Source of the DNA: a virus
Strand: one strand, 5' to 3'
Length of the DNA: 6,380 nt
Virus record (IMG/VR): IMGVR_UViG_3300020041_000087
Coordinates: 1-6,380 of that record
Shown: positions 122 through 6,380 of the stretch, piece by piece
How the letters are laid out: each line of letters begins with the position of its first letter
How positions within the stretch are numbered: the stretch's first letter is position 1
Position numbers and translations under genes: made by a program
The notes under the pieces: model-generated
The model's database searches: none
The model's input: only the letters and a program-made list of their open reading frames with translations
What the model was told of the DNA's origin: nothing

Positions 122-381
122 CCACTCTTAAGTCTTGGGTTTCTCCTGTTACCGAATCTCTTCTTTCTGGATGGTTTGGTTTTGGATATAATGAAGGAAC
201 TGTTAATAAAAACAATAAGGTTGTTTTGAATTATAAGTTCTTTAAGGTTAACCCTTCTGTTCTTGATCCTATATTTGGAGTTACTGCGGATTCTACTTGG
301 GATACCGACCAACTTCTTGTCAATTCTTATATCGGTTGCTATGTTGCCCGTAATTTGTCTCGTGATGGTGTACCTTATTAG
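1..381 (+). CDS. VP1: Major capsid protein, 3' part (same gene as 4790-6380; bases 1-121 duplicate 6260-6380); stop TAG 379-381
   Basis: It is in the same frame as 4790 after circularisation ((6260-4790) is divisible by 3). Track ORF 4-381 is its tail (..PMTQIFNSSKASIVNLFNAGYNPRYFNWKTKLDVINGAF...SRDGVPY*). Confidence 0.95.
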   Translation, partial: PMTQIFNSSKASIVNLFNAGYNPRYFNWKTKLDVINGAFTTTLKSWVSPVTESLLSGWFGFGYNEGTVNKNNKVVLNYKFFKVNPSVLDPIFGVTADSTWDTDQLLVNSYIGCYVARNLSRDGVPY

Positions 382-396
382 TTTTTTGTTTTTACT

Positions 397-879
397 ATGA
401 TAGGAAAGTTTAATTCTTTGGAATGTCTGGAACAAGGTTCTGGATTTATTCCTAATGTTGAGCCTGATGCTTTTGCTGTTGCTCCTCAGTTTGATTCTAC
501 CGAGGAACTTCGTGTAGAAATTGATGATACTGATGAATCTCGTCCGGTTCGTTATACTTCTGATGTTCGGTTAATCCTTCATACTAAGGATTTGGCTTCC
601 CGTGCTGGTCTTGCTGTTGCTTCTAAGTTTGGACAAAACAACCAGTCTCCCTCTCAAATTCAGCAAATAATGGATACGATGTCTGATGATGACCTTTTGG
701 CAACGGTACGTTCTCGGCATATTCAGGCTCCTTCTGAAATTATTGCTTGGTCTAAGGAATTGTCTGCTTACGCTGAACATCTTGAGTCTCAAGCTCAAGA
801 ATTGATTGACGCTGAAACTTCTAAACAAAAAACAGAAAAGGCGGATGCTGCTTCCGCTAATGCTGTTTCTTCTGAATAA
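397..879 (+). CDS. Hypothetical acidic 160-aa protein; possible internal scaffolding (VP3-like) protein by position only
   Basis: The ORF is uninterrupted with the same T-ending codon style as the capsid gene. It sits between the capsid and pilot genes, and its TAA (877-879) overlaps the next ATG (TAATG). It is D/E-rich (EELRVEIDDTDESRP, MSDDDLL). I recognise no catalytic motif, so the function is a guess. Confidence 0.7.
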   Translation: MIGKFNSLECLEQGSGFIPNVEPDAFAVAPQFDSTEELRVEIDDTDESRPVRYTSDVRLILHTKDLASRAGLAVASKFGQNNQSPSQIQQIMDTMSDDDLLATVRSRHIQAPSEIIAWSKELSAYAEHLESQAQELIDAETSKQKTEKADAASANAVSSE

Positions 880-1034
880 TGGGTTTACTTAGTTCAATCG
901 CTGGTGGTCTCTTTGGTATTGGTTCTTCTGTTATTCAGAATTCACAAAATAGACAGAATGTCCAGGAGACTAACCAGATGAATTATAAGATTAATCAGAT
1001 GAATAATCAGTTTAACGAACGTATGGCGATATAG
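879..1034 (+). CDS. VP2: N-terminal segment of the pilot / minor capsid protein (VP2, phiX174 H-like), ending at in-frame TAG 1032-1034
   Basis: ATG 879 overlaps the preceding TAA. It encodes MGLLSSIAGGLFGIGSSVIQNSQNRQNVQETNQMNYKINQMNNQFNERMAI*. The glycine-rich hydrophobic N-terminus followed by a Q/N-rich stretch is what microvirus pilot proteins start with. It is in the same frame (0 mod 3) as ORF 1056-2033. Confidence 0.75.
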   Translation: MGLLSSIAGGLFGIGSSVIQNSQNRQNVQETNQMNYKINQMNNQFNERMAI

Positions 1035-1055
1035 CAGCGTAATTGGCAGGAGAAT

Positions 1056-2033
1056 ATGTGGAATAAGGAGAATGCTTATAACACTGCTTCTGCTCAACGC
1101 CAACGTCTTGAAGAAGCTGGTTTGAATCCTTATCTGATGATGAACGGAGGTTCAGCTGGTGTTGCTCAGTCTGCCGGAACTGGTGCTTCTGCTTCTTCTT
1201 CTGGAAATGCTGTTATGCAACCTTTTCAGGCTGATTATTCTGGTATAGGCTCTTCCGTTGGTAACATTTTCCAATATGAGTTGATGCAATCTGAAAAGTC
1301 TCAATTGCAAGGTGCTAGACAGCTTGCTGATGCTCAGGCAATGGAAGTTCTTTCCAATATCGATTGGGGAAAACTTACTGACGAGACTCGTAATTATTTG
1401 AAAACTACCGGGTTGGCTCGAGCCCAGCTTGGTTACGCTAAGGAACAGCAGGAGGCCGATAACATGGCAATGACAGGTCTTATCATGCGTGCTCAACGTT
1501 CTGGTATGCTTCTTGATAATGAGGCTAAAGGTATTTTGAATAAGTATCTTGACCAACAACAGCAAATTGATTTGAATGTTAAGGCTGCGGATTATTATCA
1601 GCGGATGGCTGCCGGCTACCTTTCTTATTCTGAAGCTAAAAAGGCTATAGCTGAAGAGGCTTTGGCCGCTGCTCGTACTCGTGGTCAAAACATTTCTAAT
1701 AAGGTTGCTTCTGCTATTGCTGAGTCTCAAATTGCTGCTAATATTGCGGCTAATGAATCTTCTGCGGCTTATCATAATGAAGAGCTCAGGCTAAATCTTC
1801 CTCAAGACAATGCTCGTAGTAGTAATATTGAGGCATGGTATCGTTCTAGAAATGAGAAGAAAAGGTATAAGTATTTTGACGCTGATAAATGGGTCAACTA
1901 TGGCACTAGCATTGGTAATACTATAGGCAATTTCTTACCTCATAGGATTATTTCTAAGTCTTTTTCTCGTTCCATTAACCATAACTCTAACACTGGTTCT
2001 AATACTAATTATAATTACAATTATAGTCATTAA
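1056..2033 (+). CDS. VP2: Pilot / minor capsid protein VP2 (H-like), main body as an uninterrupted ORF; the true gene most likely begins at 879
   Basis: It contains WNKENAYNTASAQRQRLEEAGLNPYLMMNGGSAG, the block I associate with microvirus VP2 proteins. A long A/Q/E-rich, coiled-coil-like middle follows (AQLGYAKEQQEADN..., AIAEEALAAARTRGQ...). It ends in a low-complexity N/Y/S tail (NTGSNTNYNYNYSH) and stops at TAA 2031-2033. The frame is also open from 1035 back to the TAG. Confidence 0.9.
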   Translation: MWNKENAYNTASAQRQRLEEAGLNPYLMMNGGSAGVAQSAGTGASASSSGNAVMQPFQADYSGIGSSVGNIFQYELMQSEKSQLQGARQLADAQAMEVLSNIDWGKLTDETRNYLKTTGLARAQLGYAKEQQEADNMAMTGLIMRAQRSGMLLDNEAKGILNKYLDQQQQIDLNVKAADYYQRMAAGYLSYSEAKKAIAEEALAAARTRGQNISNKVASAIAESQIAANIAANESSAAYHNEELRLNLPQDNARSSNIEAWYRSRNEKKRYKYFDADKWVNYGTSIGNTIGNFLPHRIISKSFSRSINHNSNTGSNTNYNYNYSH

Positions 2034-2055
2034 CGTTAGTATTTTTCTCATATTT

Positions 2056-2093
2056 ACCCGGCCGTACTCGATGCGTGCCGGGTTTTGTTGTTT
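2056..2093 (+). terminator. Intrinsic (rho-independent) terminator-like hairpin after the pilot gene
   Basis: A 7-bp G/C-rich stem pairs acccggc (2056-2062) with gccgggt (2077-2083). It is extendable by an inner 4 bp (2063-2066 with 2072-2075, one G-T). A T-rich run tttgttgttt (2084-2093) follows. The hairpin begins 23 nt after the VP2 stop. Confidence 0.7.
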
Positions 2094-2395
2094 GGAGTAA
2101 CTTCCGGCAACCGCGCGAAGCGTGGTTATACACTCCCTGAATTCCGGGAGACTCCGTCGACTGGAATCAGAACCGTAAGGTTATAGTACTGCCTTCCTTT
2201 AAGCTTGATGTTCGCAACGCGTAAGCAATTCCCCGGAGAACTTCTCTCTGCCGTCGCTGCTATACCCCTAAAATATTATTTGACGAAGTCTACATGAGTT
2301 TGCCCGAAGGGAAAGCGATTTACCTCATCGCTTTCAGTCTCCTCTTGTCTTATATACGCAAACTCACAGACCAACCTGTCACCCACATAACTTAT
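2094..2395 (+). other. Structured non-coding block (hairpin cluster); candidate complementary-strand origin / DNA-level cis element, or an unclassified ncRNA
   Basis: No ORF of 60 aa or more lies on either strand between 2034 and 2501. Hairpins read by eye: 2109-2127 (8 bp, GAA loop, contains GCGAAGC 2115-2121); 2133-2150 (ctccc/gggag); 2171-2182 (aacc-GTAA-ggtt); 2282-2290 (gac-GAA-gtc); 2303-2311 (ccc-GAA-ggg); 2311-2335 (perfect 9-bp stem gaaagcgat/atcgctttc, 7-nt loop). Local G+C reaches 36/60 in 2101-2160, against about 18-20/60 in the capsid stretches I counted. Confidence 0.6.
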
Positions 2396-2426
2396 TGTTT
2401 ATTTATGTTAATAATACATGCGTATA

Positions 2427-2459
2427 TTTGCTTCTTTTAAATTTTTATTCATATCTTTG
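2427..2459 (+). promoter_or_regulatory. Bacteroidota-type promoter candidate (-33 TTTG, -7 TAnnTTTG) for the 2502-4763 gene block
   Basis: TTTG sits at 2427-2430 and TAtcTTTG at 2452-2459, separated by 21 nt, in an AT-rich tract about 45 nt upstream of ATG 2502. A second TAnnTTTG (tatatttg, 2423-2430) overlaps it. The motifs match the published Bacteroides promoter consensus. Confidence 0.5.
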
Positions 2460-2501
2460 TTTTGTCTTTAAAATCAATGTATAATTAAAATTTTAAGTGT
2501 T

Positions 2502-2675
2502 ATGGAAAATTGTTATTTGTGTTCTGTACAGTCTAAGGTAAATCCTGCTCAAAATGAGACTGTTCTCGTTCCTGTCGAAAGTATTTCTGAGTTTGTTTCT
2601 TCAACTCTCCGGCCTGATTGCCTTCTTATTATTTCTCCATGTTCAACCTTTAAATCAATTTCTGATGAAAAGTGA
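2502..2675 (+). CDS. Hypothetical 57-aa Cys-rich protein (CxxC ... Cx6C), below the ORF-track size cutoff
   Basis: ATG 2502 to TGA 2673-2675 encodes MENCYLCSVQSKVNPAQNETVLVPVESISEFVSSTLRPDCLLIISPCSTFKSISDEK. By hand count 33/57 codons end in T, matching the genome's coding style. The overlapping track ORF frame (2554-2664) has about 11/37. Confidence 0.5.
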   Translation: MENCYLCSVQSKVNPAQNETVLVPVESISEFVSSTLRPDCLLIISPCSTFKSISDEK

Positions 2676-2754
2676 AACTAAGTCTAAAATCTGGTCTGCA
2701 ATTATTGCAGCTGCTGTTAGTCTTCTTACGTCTATTGCTCAGATATTTTCGTAA
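2665..2754 (+). CDS. Hypothetical 29-aa single-pass membrane peptide; holin-like candidate
   Basis: The internal ATG at 2665 of track ORF 2554-2754 gives MKSETKSKIWSAIIAAAVSLLTSIAQIFS*, a charged N-terminus followed by a hydrophobic span of about 19 residues. 16/29 codons end in T. It overlaps the stop of the 57-aa ORF and ends 9 nt before the peptidase ATG. Confidence 0.45.
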   Translation: MKSETKSKIWSAIIAAAVSLLTSIAQIFS

Positions 2755-2763
2755 TCGTAAGCT

Positions 2764-3072
2764 ATGAACCCTGAATTAATGAAATTTGTTGAGTGGCTTC
2801 TTCGCCGAAATCTTCATTTTACTGTCACTTCAGCTTTTCGTACCAAGGAGCAGAATGAGGCATGTAATGGTTCTGAGAATTCTCAGCATTTGACCGGAGA
2901 TGCTATTGATTTAAAGCCTTTGGATTTTTCGGTTGACTCTTTAGTCTTTGTAATTAAAGATTCTCCTTTCAAGTTTGACCAACTTATAAAGTATCGAACT
3001 TTTGTTCATATTTCTTTTGCTCGTGGTCGCAATCCTCGTCAAATGGAGCTTAATTTTTCTAATAGAAAATGA
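2764..3072 (+). CDS. Zinc D-Ala-D-Ala carboxypeptidase-like cell-wall hydrolase (Peptidase_M15 / M15_3-type), 102 aa
   Basis: SAFRTKEQNEACNGSENSQHLTGDAIDL contains the S-x-H-x-x-G-x-A-x-D zinc-ligand signature (nt 2881-2910) after an S-x-x-R..N segment. A downstream FVHISF supplies the third His ligand. There is no signal peptide or TM segment. TGA overlaps the rep ATG (ATGA, 3069-3072). Confidence 0.85.
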   Translation: MNPELMKFVEWLLRRNLHFTVTSAFRTKEQNEACNGSENSQHLTGDAIDLKPLDFSVDSLVFVIKDSPFKFDQLIKYRTFVHISFARGRNPRQMELNFSNRK

Positions 3073-4763
3073 TTACTAAGGAATTACAGAATAAGTTAGT
3101 GACTCGTTGTCAGCACCCTCGTACGGTTGTCAATAAGTATACTCAAGAGTCCGTTGTTGTCCCTTGTGGCCATTGCCCCTCTTGCGTTCTTCGTCGGTCT
3201 TCTATTCAGACAAACCTGCTTGCTACTTATTCTGCTCAATTCCGTTATGTATATTTTGTCACTCTTACTTATGCTCCTTGCTTTCTTCCTACTTTGGAGG
3301 TTTCGGTTGTTGAAACTTGCACGGACGATGTTGCGGACGTATCCTGTGTTCCCAATATTGATGAGTTGGACGCTGATGACCCTAATGCTTATTTGTTTGG
3401 TTTTCGCAGCGTTCCTCGTTCCGCTTCTGTCAAATTAAAAAATTCTACTGTTGAGCGTACGTTTAAAGACCCTGAGATAAAATTTTCTTATCCCATGAAG
3501 CCTAAGGATTTGTTGTCTATTCTTGGGAAGGTTAAGCATAATGTTTCCAATAGAATTCCTTATATTTGTAATCGTGACCTCGATTTATTTTTGAAACGTT
3601 TAAGAAGTTATTTCCCGGATGAAAAATTTCGTTACTACGCTGTATCAGAATACGGCCCTACCAGTTTCCGCCCGCATTGGCATTTGCTATTGTTTTCCAA
3701 TTCCGAACGATTTTCGCAAACTATTTGTGAAAATGTATCTAAGGCTTGGTCTTACGGACGTTGTGATGCGTCATTGTCGAGAGGATTCGCAGCTTCATAT
3801 GTTGCGTCGTATGTTAATAGTTTTGTCGCTTTACCCGACTTTTATACTCAAATGCCAAAAGTGGTGCGACCTAAATCCTTCCATTCCATTGGATTTACAG
3901 AATCAAATCTCTTTCCTCGAGAGGTACGAGTTGCCGAAGTTGACGAAGTTGCCGATAAGTGCCTTAATGGAGTCTGCGTTGAGCGCAATGGACATTTTTG
4001 CACAATTAAACCTTCTTGGCCGTATCTCCTTCGATTATTCCCGAGATTTTCAGAGCCTATTCGTAAATTTCCATCGCGTGTTTACCAGTTATTATCTGCT
4101 GCGTTCACAGCACCCGGGAGAGTCGTTCGTGGCGGATGCGCCGATTTAGATTGCGATCCTTTTAGTGTTGATTCTAAACAATCTCTTTTATCTTTTTGTA
4201 AGAAATATTTAAATTATGTAGATAATTATGGAAAATCAAATGAACATAGGAACTTTCTCTCTCCTCAGGCAAATTTACCGCATAGTGATATTCTCATTTT
4301 GTCTGAATGTCGTTTGTACGATGGTGTTGATTTGGACCCTGTTCATCGCGCCTCCCGCGTCTACCGCTTTTTTCTCGGAATTAAGAAGTTTGTTCGAGTC
4401 TATTCATCAGCCGGAGATCCAAGATGCTTCTTTCCCAGCTGCTTTTTCGGAGGAACATTCCCTGAACAAATAGATTTTTTGCGTATTCTTTCCGTTAAAA
4501 TAGTTGATTTTTGGAATCGTTACGAGTACAATCGTCTTGTTGATTTTTATCAGACTTTGGAAGATTCCAATGACAAAGAATTGGTTGACTTTGAACTTCG
4601 TAACTATTCTTTTCGTTATGATAAGTCTGTTCTTGATGAAGAAACTCCTTATAATGAATTGCCTCTTGTTCGTCACTTGGCTGCCGCGTCATTGATGAAA
4701 TGTCGGGATAAGGTCAAGCACAAGAAGGTTAATGATTTGTCAGGTGTTTTCTTTTATGAATAA
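3069..4763 (+). CDS. VP4: Rolling-circle replication initiator (HUH endonuclease, Microviridae A/VP4 family), 564 aa
   Basis: An N-terminal Cys cluster is present (C14 ... PCGHCPSC). Motif 1 is FVTLTY (3255-3272). The HUH motif is RPHWHLLLF (HWH = 3675-3683). The tyrosine motif is SYVASYVNS, with Tyr codons at 3798 and 3810, two Tyr three residues apart as in phiX174 gpA. Confidence 0.95.
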   Translation: MITKELQNKLVTRCQHPRTVVNKYTQESVVVPCGHCPSCVLRRSSIQTNLLATYSAQFRYVYFVTLTYAPCFLPTLEVSVVETCTDDVADVSCVPNIDELDADDPNAYLFGFRSVPRSASVKLKNSTVERTFKDPEIKFSYPMKPKDLLSILGKVKHNVSNRIPYICNRDLDLFLKRLRSYFPDEKFRYYAVSEYGPTSFRPHWHLLLFSNSERFSQTICENVSKAWSYGRCDASLSRGFAASYVASYVNSFVALPDFYTQMPKVVRPKSFHSIGFTESNLFPREVRVAEVDEVADKCLNGVCVERNGHFCTIKPSWPYLLRLFPRFSEPIRKFPSRVYQLLSAAFTAPGRVVRGGCADLDCDPFSVDSKQSLLSFCKKYLNYVDNYGKSNEHRNFLSPQANLPHSDILILSECRLYDGVDLDPVHRASRVYRFFLGIKKFVRVYSSAGDPRCFFPSCFFGGTFPEQIDFLRILSVKIVDFWNRYEYNRLVDFYQTLEDSNDKELVDFELRNYSFRYDKSVLDEETPYNELPLVRHLAAASLMKCRDKVKHKKVNDLSGVFFYE

Positions 4764-4789: not shown

Positions 4790-6380
4790 ATGGCTTCTTA
4801 CACCGGAATGTCCAATCTTCAGAATCACCCTCACCGTTCTGGATTTGATATTGGACGTAAAAATGCGTTTACTGCGAAAGTTGGTGAGCTTCTCCCTGTC
4901 TATTGGGATATTTCTATGCCTGGTGATAAGTACAAGTTCAACGTTGAGTATTTTACCCGTACTCAGCCTGTTGAAACTTCTGCTTATACCAGGTTGCGTG
5001 AATATTTTGATTTCTATGCTGTTCCGTTGCGTCTTCTTTGGAAGTCTGCGCCTTCCGTACTGACTCAAATGCAGGATATCAATCAGATTCAGGCTTTGTC
5101 TTTGACCCAGAATTTGGCTCTTGGTACTTATTTACCTTCTTTACCTCTCTCATTTTTTTATCAAGCTTTGAGTAGGCTTAATGGAAATAGTGTCAATCCT
5201 GGTAATTCTTCTTCTTTAAATAATATGTTTGGTTTTAATCGTGGTGATTTAAGCTATAAGCTTTTGAGTTATCTCGGTTATGGTAATATTGTACTTAATA
5301 CTCCTTCTTCTGGTAATCGCTGGTGGTCTACAACTTTAAAGAATGACACTTCTTCTTCTTCTTATACTCAGGCCTATATTCAGAATAATGTTGTGAATAT
5401 TTTCCCTATTCTTGCTTATCAGAAGATTTATCAAGATTTTTTCCGTTGGTCTCAATGGGAAAATGCGAATCCTTCTTCTTACAATGTGGACTACTATTCT
5501 GGTATTAATCCTTACTTGATTTCTTCCATTCCTTCTGCTTCTGATGCTTATTGGAAGTCCGATACAATGTTTGACCTCAAATATTGTAATTGGAACAAGG
5601 ATATGTTGATGGGTGTTCTTCCGAACTCTCAATTTGGTGATGTTGCTGTTCTTAATATTGACAATTCCGGTAAGCCTGATGTTGTTTTGGGATTAGGTGA
5701 TAAGAATAGTACAGTAGGAGTTGCTTCTGCTATTTCTTCTAATTCGGCTTCGGTTCCTTTTTTTGCTCTTAAGGCTTCCGCCTCTAATGTTCTTCCCGTG
5801 GGTTCTACTCTTCGTGTTGATCTATCTTCGTTGAATTCTCAATTCTCAGTTCTTGCCCTTCGTCAAGCTGAAGCTCTTCAACGTTGGAAGGAAATTAGTC
5901 AATCTGGAGATAGCGACTACCGTGAACAGATACGTAAACATTTTGGTGTGAACTTGCCTCAAGCTCTTTCTAATATGTGTACCTATATCGGTGGTATCTC
6001 TCGTAACCTTGATATCAGTGAGGTTGTTAATAACAATCTTGCTGCCGAAGGTGATACTGCTGTTATTGCTGGTAAAGGTGTTGGTGCTGGTAATGGTTCT
6101 TTCACTTACACTACTAATGAGCACTGTGTTGTTATGTGTATTTATCATGCTGTTCCTCTGCTTGATTACACAATTACTGGTCAGGATGGTCAGTTACTTG
6201 TGACTGATGCTGAATCTCTCCCGATTCCTGAGTTTGATAACATTGGCATGGAGGTTCTTCCTATGACTCAAATTTTCAACTCTTCCAAGGCTTCTATTGT
6301 TAATCTGTTTAATGCAGGTTATAATCCTCGTTATTTCAATTGGAAGACAAAGCTTGACGTCATCAATGGTGCCTTTACTA
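4790..6380 (+). CDS. VP1: Major capsid protein (Microviridae F/VP1 family), 5' part; the ORF has no stop inside the window and continues at base 122 (=6381) to the TAG at 379-381; full length 616 aa
   Basis: I translated codon by codon from ATG 4790 (in-frame TAA at 4778-4780 upstream) to 6380 and found no stop. The ORF track omits it, apparently because it has no in-window stop. It starts MASYTGMSNLQNHPHRSGFDIGRKNAFTAKVGELLPVYWDISMPGDKYKFNVEYFTRTQPVETSAYTRLREYFDFYAVPLRLLW. It also contains FPILAYQKIYQDFFRWSQWEN, CNWNKDMLMGVLPNSQFGD, ALRQAEALQRWKEISQSGDSDYREQIRKHFGV and EHCVVMCIYHAVPLLDY. These are blocks I recognise as conserved microvirus capsid-protein segments. Confidence 0.95.
   Translation, partial: MASYTGMSNLQNHPHRSGFDIGRKNAFTAKVGELLPVYWDISMPGDKYKFNVEYFTRTQPVETSAYTRLREYFDFYAVPLRLLWKSAPSVLTQMQDINQIQALSLTQNLALGTYLPSLPLSFFYQALSRLNGNSVNPGNSSSLNNMFGFNRGDLSYKLLSYLGYGNIVLNTPSSGNRWWSTTLKNDTSSSSYTQAYIQNNVVNIFPILAYQKIYQDFFRWSQWENANPSSYNVDYYSGINPYLISSIPSASDAYWKSDTMFDLKYCNWNKDMLMGVLPNSQFGDVAVLNIDNSGKPDVVLGLGDKNSTVGVASAISSNSASVPFFALKASASNVLPVGSTLRVDLSSLNSQFSVLALRQAEALQRWKEISQSGDSDYREQIRKHFGVNLPQALSNMCTYIGGISRNLDISEVVNNNLAAEGDTAVIAGKGVGAGNGSFTYTTNEHCVVMCIYHAVPLLDYTITGQDGQLLVTDAESLPIPEFDNIGMEVLPMTQIFNSSKASIVNLFNAGYNPRYFNWKTKLDVINGAFT
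6260..6380. repeat. Terminal redundancy, copy 2 (identical to 1-121)
   Basis: Same as copy 1. 6260 is the first base of a capsid-frame codon (cct), as is base 1, so the reading frame is preserved across the junction. Confidence 0.97.

Follow-up and report, generated by a model that had tools for sequence, protein, structure and literature searches.

A single in-frame TAG in the pilot-protein gene of a microvirus genome is very probably a private CAG-to-TAG change under the standard genetic code

The gene for the DNA pilot protein (VP2) of the microvirus genome in IMG/VR record IMGVR_UViG_3300020041_000087 is interrupted by a single in-frame TAG. We consider it very probable that this TAG is a private transition of a CAG codon (Gln52) in a genome that uses the standard code, and that it represents either a real amber variant or a consensus error. 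The comparison with relatives shows that the change is confined to this assembly and that the ancestral codon is CAG. Between a real amber variant and a base-call or consensus error, the odds are roughly equal. As it stands, the TAG carries little weight: a lone assembled genome has a lone nonsense change of an ordinary kind.

The window analysed here (the whole stretch of 6,380 nucleotides) holds a complete circular microvirus genome. Its bases 1-121 recur exactly at 6260-6380, which gives a circular unit of 6259 nt, and the + strand carries every gene (Table 1). The scaffold gene (VP3) shares the frame of the capsid gene and starts five codons past the capsid TAG. VP2 follows the scaffold gene directly, its ATG overlapping the scaffold TAA (TAATG); it shares its strand with the capsid and replication genes, and the order is that of annotated relatives. 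The GenBank matches to the window comprise 8 genomes at ~80-84% nucleotide identity, among them the Dulem viruses 236 and 257 and the bajarodmic viruses 410 and 1134, and the closest genome of all, L005, is only 89.6% identical. Four proteins of the window, looked up by exact sequence, gave no match. The gene order (VP1-VP3-VP2-...-M15 peptidase-VP4, with M15_3 between VP2 and VP4) and the genome size of ~6.3 kb are like those of the Alpavirinae of the human gut, for which Bacteroidetes hosts are inferred (Roux et al. 2012, PMC3394797), and this likeness is one of layout. The relatives of the window also have gut sources, and the 16 metagenome contigs that match a pattern specific to the window's TAG site come mostly from the human gut. 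A scan of genome contigs gave a sole match in cellular genomes, a distant one (36%) in Chitinophaga. We infer that the likely host phylum of the phage is Bacteroidota.

Table 1. Features of the window, with positions counted from its first nucleotide.
Feature	Position	Strand	Remarks
Major capsid protein gene	4790-6259, then 1-381 on the circle	+	Pfam Phage_F; stop TAG 379-381
Internal scaffolding protein (VP3)	397-879	+	Named scaffolding protein in GenBank relatives
Pilot protein VP2 (DNA pilot protein)	879-2033	+	PHROG profiles, GenBank relatives
VP2 codons 1-51	879-1031	+	Gly-rich hydrophobic N-terminus, then Q/N-rich stretch
In-frame TAG, codon 52	1032-1034	+	C-to-T at 1032 relative to the clade's CAG
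VP2 remainder, codons 53-384 and TAA	1035-2033	+	Intact, collinear with relatives
Candidate re-initiation site	1048-1058	+	AGGAG 1048-1052, 3-nt spacer, ATG 1056 (Met59)
Non-coding stretch	2034-2501		3' of VP2
Intrinsic terminator-like site	2056-2093	+	GC-rich hairpin and T-run; 3' of VP2; conserved in relatives
57-codon ORF	2502-2675	+	
M15_3 peptidase gene	2764-3072	+	
Replication initiator gene	3069-4763	+	

The VP2 gene comprises 385 codons; it is interrupted once, by the TAG at codon 52, and ends with TAA at 2031-2033. An earlier reading of this DNA, made without database searches (hereafter the sequence-only reading), had given the frame, the TAG, the start, and the stop, and every one of these coordinates is accurate. 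It had also placed the TAG inside one protein and not between two genes, which the profiles and the relatives bear out. Four PHROG families of the type "pilot protein for DNA ejection" match VP2, and the best of these alignments, to phrog_31272 (E=3.8e-10), spans residues 2-144 and passes the TAG unbroken. The profiles also cover the part of the protein that precedes the stop, described in the sequence-only reading as a typical pilot-protein N-terminus, in which residues 1-19 have a mean hydropathy of +1.6. VP2 is 66-71% identical to GenBank CDSs labelled DNA pilot protein, and in 4 GenBank records with the same gene order a single uninterrupted pilot CDS runs on from the scaffold stop. The nucleotide alignment with 4 GenBank relatives is collinear through the TAG: the window reads GCG ATA TAG CAG CGT where the relatives read GCG CTA CAG CAG CGT or GCT ATG CAG CAG/CAA CGY. 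The database holds 1019 homologues of VP2 at E<=1e-30, and the single uninterrupted frame expected of a microvirus VP2, absent from the window on account of the TAG, is present in 101/101 relatives. A Pfam search of VP2 matched no family. An AlphaFold2 model of an intact homologue (P0002) places a long helix over residue 52, but its mean pLDDT of 39 is too low for this helix to count as evidence. By these comparisons, both flanks of the TAG are one gene.

The relatives are nearly uniform at the site of the TAG. The best 120 of the 1019 protein homologues are all full length (355-388 residues), and in an alignment of the kind that the sequence-only reading had proposed as a check, the residue opposite the TAG is Q in 119 of them and E in one. 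In the same best 120 of 1019 homologues this residue sits in an invariant block, QFNERMA-[I/M]-Q-QR. At the nucleotide level, a degenerate site pattern that left the first base of the codon free and fixed the other two as AG matched 47 IMG/VR contigs, and each of them has CAG. The window-specific pattern, with the codon constrained in this way too, found the 16 metagenome contigs mentioned above, and these have CAG without exception (16/16). With TAG fixed in the site pattern, there were 0 matches in 241 million metagenome records. We also gathered a site-blind sample of 96 unique relatives, with a query limited to the downstream part of VP2. In this sample, codon 52 is CAG in 86, AAA or AAG (Lys) in 10, and TAG in none, and the relatives bearing Lys are distant (36-40% identity). 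Five further contigs, which encode the closest database homologues, all have CAG. When these data are pooled, CAG is found in 91 of the 101 relatives, i.e., in every relative above ~60% VP2 identity, Lys in the 10 distant ones, and TAG in none of the 101. The earlier suggestion that one transition leads from CAG to TAG is thus confirmed, as the relatives carry CAG and the change is C to T at 1032.

The window sequence is not generally damaged, and apart from the TAG its odd changes are not in excess. Judged over 59-84 genomes per gene, its private changes at columns invariant in all other genomes number only 3, a count that places the window 38th of 69 genomes; the stop is one of two C>T changes among them. 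No other defects were found in VP2 or in the rest of the genome. Among the relatives, we counted 0 premature stops in ~160,780 aligned codons of six proteins from undoubled contigs. The window is thus the only genome of the comparison with such a stop, and not one of many sloppy assemblies; and since a comparable defect is seen in 0/96 relatives, premature stops are rare in the assemblies of this clade. The seven codons from the TAG to ATG 1056 are identical to those of the relatives and undecayed, and the change is therefore recent.

TAG is a working terminator in this genome and in its clade, and the code is the standard one. The capsid gene stops at the same position in 94 of the 96 relatives (TAA in 83, TGA in 8, and TAG in 3), and the capsid TAG of the window stands at this conserved position. 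The capsid gene of L005 likewise stops with TAG, and more in-frame stops follow. TAG serves as terminator 57 times in the relatives, 46 of which are VP2's own stop, where it is often directly followed by a second stop (FLPW and then two stops). It also terminates a 29-codon ORF, described below, in 10 relatives, and in-frame TAGs are absent throughout the 101 relatives. Were TAG to encode Gln, the capsid frame of the window would run stop-free through five codons into the scaffold gene and give a fusion of 782 residues. Coding density is 90.2% with code 11 and 90.8% with TAG as Gln, a gain of 0.6 points that comes in part from this implausible fusion, so that the density comparison put forward in the sequence-only reading lends recoding no support when made on the window. 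The window has 85 CAA/CAG codons against one in-frame TAG, and in-frame TAG is absent from five of its six genes. As that reading had reported, there is no tRNA in the genome (0 genes by ARAGORN), and there were no Rfam matches in the window at E<=1.

These results bear directly on the possibility of a real TAG decoded as Gln, or as another residue, often enough to produce full-length VP2, with a suppressor tRNA supplied by the host or by a co-infecting TAG-recoded phage, e.g., a crAss-like one. We regard this as very unlikely. It accords with the Gln that close relatives have at the aligned position, and Lys or Glu occurs there in homologues that are distant or rare, which means that more than one kind of suppressor could serve. 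The gene layout fits the gut Alpavirinae and their inferred Bacteroidetes hosts (PMC3394797), and Bacteroidetes do have phages that recode TAG. A phage-encoded tRNA-CUA is not strictly required for recoding, since only 40% of TAG-recoded genomes had a detected suppressor tRNA (bioRxiv 10.1101/2021.08.26.457843). However, the recoded clades of gut phages in that survey have in-frame stops in 26-71% of their genes, and the window has a lone TAG among its many ordinary Gln codons. Suppression would also fuse the capsid protein to the scaffold, as TAG is the terminator at the conserved capsid stop here, and it would have to operate in a clade where TAG commonly ends genes and where no relative has it in frame. 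Neither a tRNA, nor an Rfam match, nor a gain in density worth the name speaks for it. The recoded gut-phage survey mentions no microvirus or ssDNA phage (bioRxiv 10.1101/2021.08.26.457843), and in a global survey of microviruses the Mycoplasma code is the only one reported (PMC9239249). Of five features of TAG-recoded phages, the window lacks four; the fifth, a TAG aligned with Gln, does not discriminate, because C-to-T on CAG yields TAG, and a Gln at the site is the exact prediction of a CAG-to-TAG mutation too. The sequence-only reading had listed TAG as a sense codon among its explanations and had named ordinary sense codons in close relatives as grounds to abandon it: close relatives all have CAG, none has an in-frame TAG, and TAG still works as a terminator in the genome and the clade. 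Less probable still is a TAG that is real and fixed in a replicating lineage, which would make full-length VP2 only with a suppressor tRNA borrowed from a Bacteroidota host or a TAG-recoded phage. This idea is kept alive by the inferred Bacteroidota host. If the suppressor were borrowed, a 6.3-kb ssDNA phage would depend on the code switch of another phage, and a TAG fixed in a thriving population would be the first hint of a suppression-dependent microvirus in a gut where TAG-recoded phages are common.

Two further explanations were weighed. A working split gene, in which a 51-residue peptide and a 325-residue protein started at ATG 1056 replace the single pilot protein, is highly improbable. 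Bacterial ribosomes are known to restart downstream of a nearby nonsense codon, and ATG 1056, the first start past the TAG and the only candidate restart site, lies 21 nt downstream of it with an AGGAG ahead at 3-nt spacing. Yet 3 nt is a short distance for such a spacer, Shine-Dalgarno pairing is little used in Bacteroidota, and the restart product would lose the hydrophobic N-terminus. The AGGAG and the ATG are ordinary conserved coding sequence; because the same bases encode W-Q-E-N-M in intact relatives, they did not evolve for restart. The gene is split in 0/101 relatives and in 0 of the best 120 of 1019 database homologues, and ATG 1056, from which the sequence-only reading had envisaged re-initiation in a genuinely split gene, is a conserved internal methionine. 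A programmed leaky readthrough, in which the TAG would serve regulation by reducing the amount of pilot protein, is extremely improbable. In E. coli, termination at UAG is weak when C follows, and UAG can be misread by near-cognate tRNA-Gln. The pilot protein is needed in few copies per virion and is a low-copy virion component in phiX174. A programmed stop should nevertheless be conserved, and TAG is found in 0/101 relatives. In the alignment with 4 GenBank relatives, no downstream structure or motif at the site sets the window apart.

The evidence favours the point change or error that the sequence-only reading had taken as its null hypothesis. With a private CAG-to-TAG change, translation of VP2 as written would end after 51 residues. 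A restart at AUG 1056 could at best yield small amounts of a 325-residue product, truncated so that it lacks the hydrophobic Gly-rich N-terminus. Given the early stop and the truncated restart product, the genome alone probably cannot make a working pilot protein, and as written it is probably null for this protein. Such a genome may still be sampled. In phiX174, the pilot protein H is a virion component that does its work when the particle infects its next cell. As the pilot protein rides in the virion and acts at that later step, a mutant genome that arises in a cell crowded with wild-type siblings would still be packaged into infectious particles, and a real nonsense variant could be such a new mutant. 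Genomes of ssDNA are prone to deamination damage and have high mutation rates (PMC5075021). The other possible origin is a mistake in base calling or in the consensus of a low-coverage assembly. The names of many related metagenome contigs give an assembly coverage of 1-6x, and microvirus assemblies often hold artefactually split genes (Kirchberger et al. 2022, PMC9239249). Some points count against a private change or error. Given 0/96 comparable defects, the TAG is an outlier event and not routine noise; the aligned Gln is equally predicted by TAG-to-Gln suppression; and phages that recode TAG circulate in Bacteroidota, the likely (inferred) host phylum.

In its sequence features, the finding matches a classical microvirus amber mutant. 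The classical am mutants of phiX174 include ones in gene H, which encodes the pilot protein. Both cases concern a small ssDNA phage in which a single transition makes UAG in a gene that is intact elsewhere and undecayed; in the window, the ancestral codon is CAG and the TAG is one base away from the sense codon of the relatives. Unlike the phiX174 am mutants, the TAG of the window is known from one metagenome-derived sequence only. The artefactually split genes of microviruses (PMC9239249) are similar in that a core gene is broken into two ORFs where relatives have one, but those splits are assembly frameshifts, whereas the break in the window is a substitution. The code 15 gut phages (crAss-like, Lak; bioRxiv 10.1101/2021.08.26.457843) share with the window an in-frame TAG that aligns with the Gln of homologues, as well as a structural (late) gene, the gut habitat, and a probable Bacteroidota host. 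They have many in-frame TAGs against one in the window. In contrast to these phages, TAG is still a terminator in the window, there is no suppressor tRNA and no density gain, and the relatives all use the standard code. For annotation, this calls for caution: VP2 is best marked as an interrupted gene or a pseudogene, and should not be re-called under code 15.

At the other end of VP2, the C-terminal tail differs in length by ~30 residues across the clade. Clade-wide readthrough at this end, suggested by similarity that extends beyond the stop in some relatives, was rejected, as the tails merely differ in length, many have tandem stops, and there is no conserved extension.

Two features located 3' of VP2, a structured element and a small gene, are probably of more practical use for the annotation of this abundant clade of gut microviruses than the TAG itself. 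The non-coding stretch that follows VP2 is not mere spacer, since 80-90% nucleotide identity is kept over ~2054-2493 in 70-76 of the 96 relatives. It includes a conserved structured element (~2094-2375) that is supported by covariation. The + strand folds better than shuffled sequences (z=-3.7, 0 of 100), and the - strand does not beat them (z=-1.6). In an alignment of 40 sequences, 90.9% of the pair cells are standard, versus 27-41% when the partners are slid by 1-3 columns. Compensatory changes are seen in nine pairs, versus 0-4 in the slid controls, and the observed pairing values were reached by 0/500 shuffles. The element has several C-GNA-G triloops with a variable middle base, which recall the very stable GNA mini-hairpins of DNA. 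It may act as ssDNA, e.g., as an origin of the complementary strand, or as RNA, and these roles are inseparable here because the packaged strand has mRNA sense.

The small gene is a strongly conserved, unannotated 29-codon ORF (2665-2754), MKSETKSKIWSAIIAAAVSLLTSIAQIFS, located just upstream of the M15_3 peptidase gene. It is without annotation in the GenBank relatives (4 records) and is open in 75 of 77 relatives. The 74 extracted copies comprise 60 distinct nucleotide sequences and only 17 distinct proteins, and the variation is mostly synonymous. The product looks like a real single-pass membrane peptide, and is possibly a lysis partner of the M15 peptidase.

Within the non-coding stretch that follows the pilot-protein gene VP2 lies a conserved structured element (see the table), found with 80-90% identity in 70-76 of the 96 unique relative genomes. 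It contains no ORF and no tRNA, and has no match in Rfam. Folding was evaluated on both strands, giving a z of -3.7 on the plus strand vs -1.6 on the minus strand. In a 40-sequence alignment, 90.9% of the pair cells were paired, compared with 27-41% in controls where the pairing partners were slid by 1-3 columns, and compensatory changes were found in 9 pairs (0-4 in the same controls). The element carries several C-GNA-G triloops, the middle base of which varies, and in one relative (L015) it is interrupted by an insertion of ca. 130 nt. The element may act either as an origin structure in ssDNA or as an RNA.

Between VP2 and this element there is a site resembling an intrinsic terminator, which is also conserved in the relatives. 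The site suggests that the capsid, scaffold, and pilot genes form one transcription unit. Within the clade, VP2 tails differ in length by some 30 residues. In most relatives the stop comes directly after ...GNFLPW or ...GNFLPH, frequently as tandem stops, and an extension rich in N, S, and Y (...RIISKSFSRSINHNSNTGSNTNYNYNYSH) is present in the window and a minority of relatives. We found no sign across the relatives of a conserved readthrough extension at this terminus.

Features of the window, with coordinates and strand
Feature	Position	Strand	Sequence	Location
Capsid-scaffold junction	379-399	+		
VP2 C-terminus	1945-2033	+		
Intrinsic terminator-like site	2056-2093	+	GC-rich hairpin then TTTTGTTGTTT	directly 3' of VP2
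Structured non-coding element	2094-2375	+		inside non-coding stretch 2034-2501
29-codon ORF, unannotated	2665-2754	+	MKSETKSKIWSAIIAAAVSLLTSIAQIFS	directly 5' of M15 peptidase gene

The 29-codon ORF overlaps the 3' end of a 57-codon ORF in a different frame. Of 77 relatives, 75 keep the 29-codon frame open, and the variation is mostly synonymous, with 60 distinct nucleotide sequences vs only 17 distinct proteins. It probably encodes a real single-pass membrane peptide, which may possibly act as a holin-like partner of the M15 peptidase. Of 83 relatives, about 20 have an interruption in a longer frame of 66 codons that starts at ATG 2554.

The capsid and scaffold genes share a frame, with nothing but a TAG and five sense codons between them. 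The relative L072 has this arrangement too, and coordinates suggest that Dulem virus 236 does as well. The arrangement looks incidental, since it is missing from most relatives, including the nearest neighbour (L005) and Dulem virus 257.

Finally, positions 1-121 and 6260-6380 are identical, an exact terminal overlap of 121 nt. As an assembly, the window is circularly closed and represents a genome of 6259 nt.
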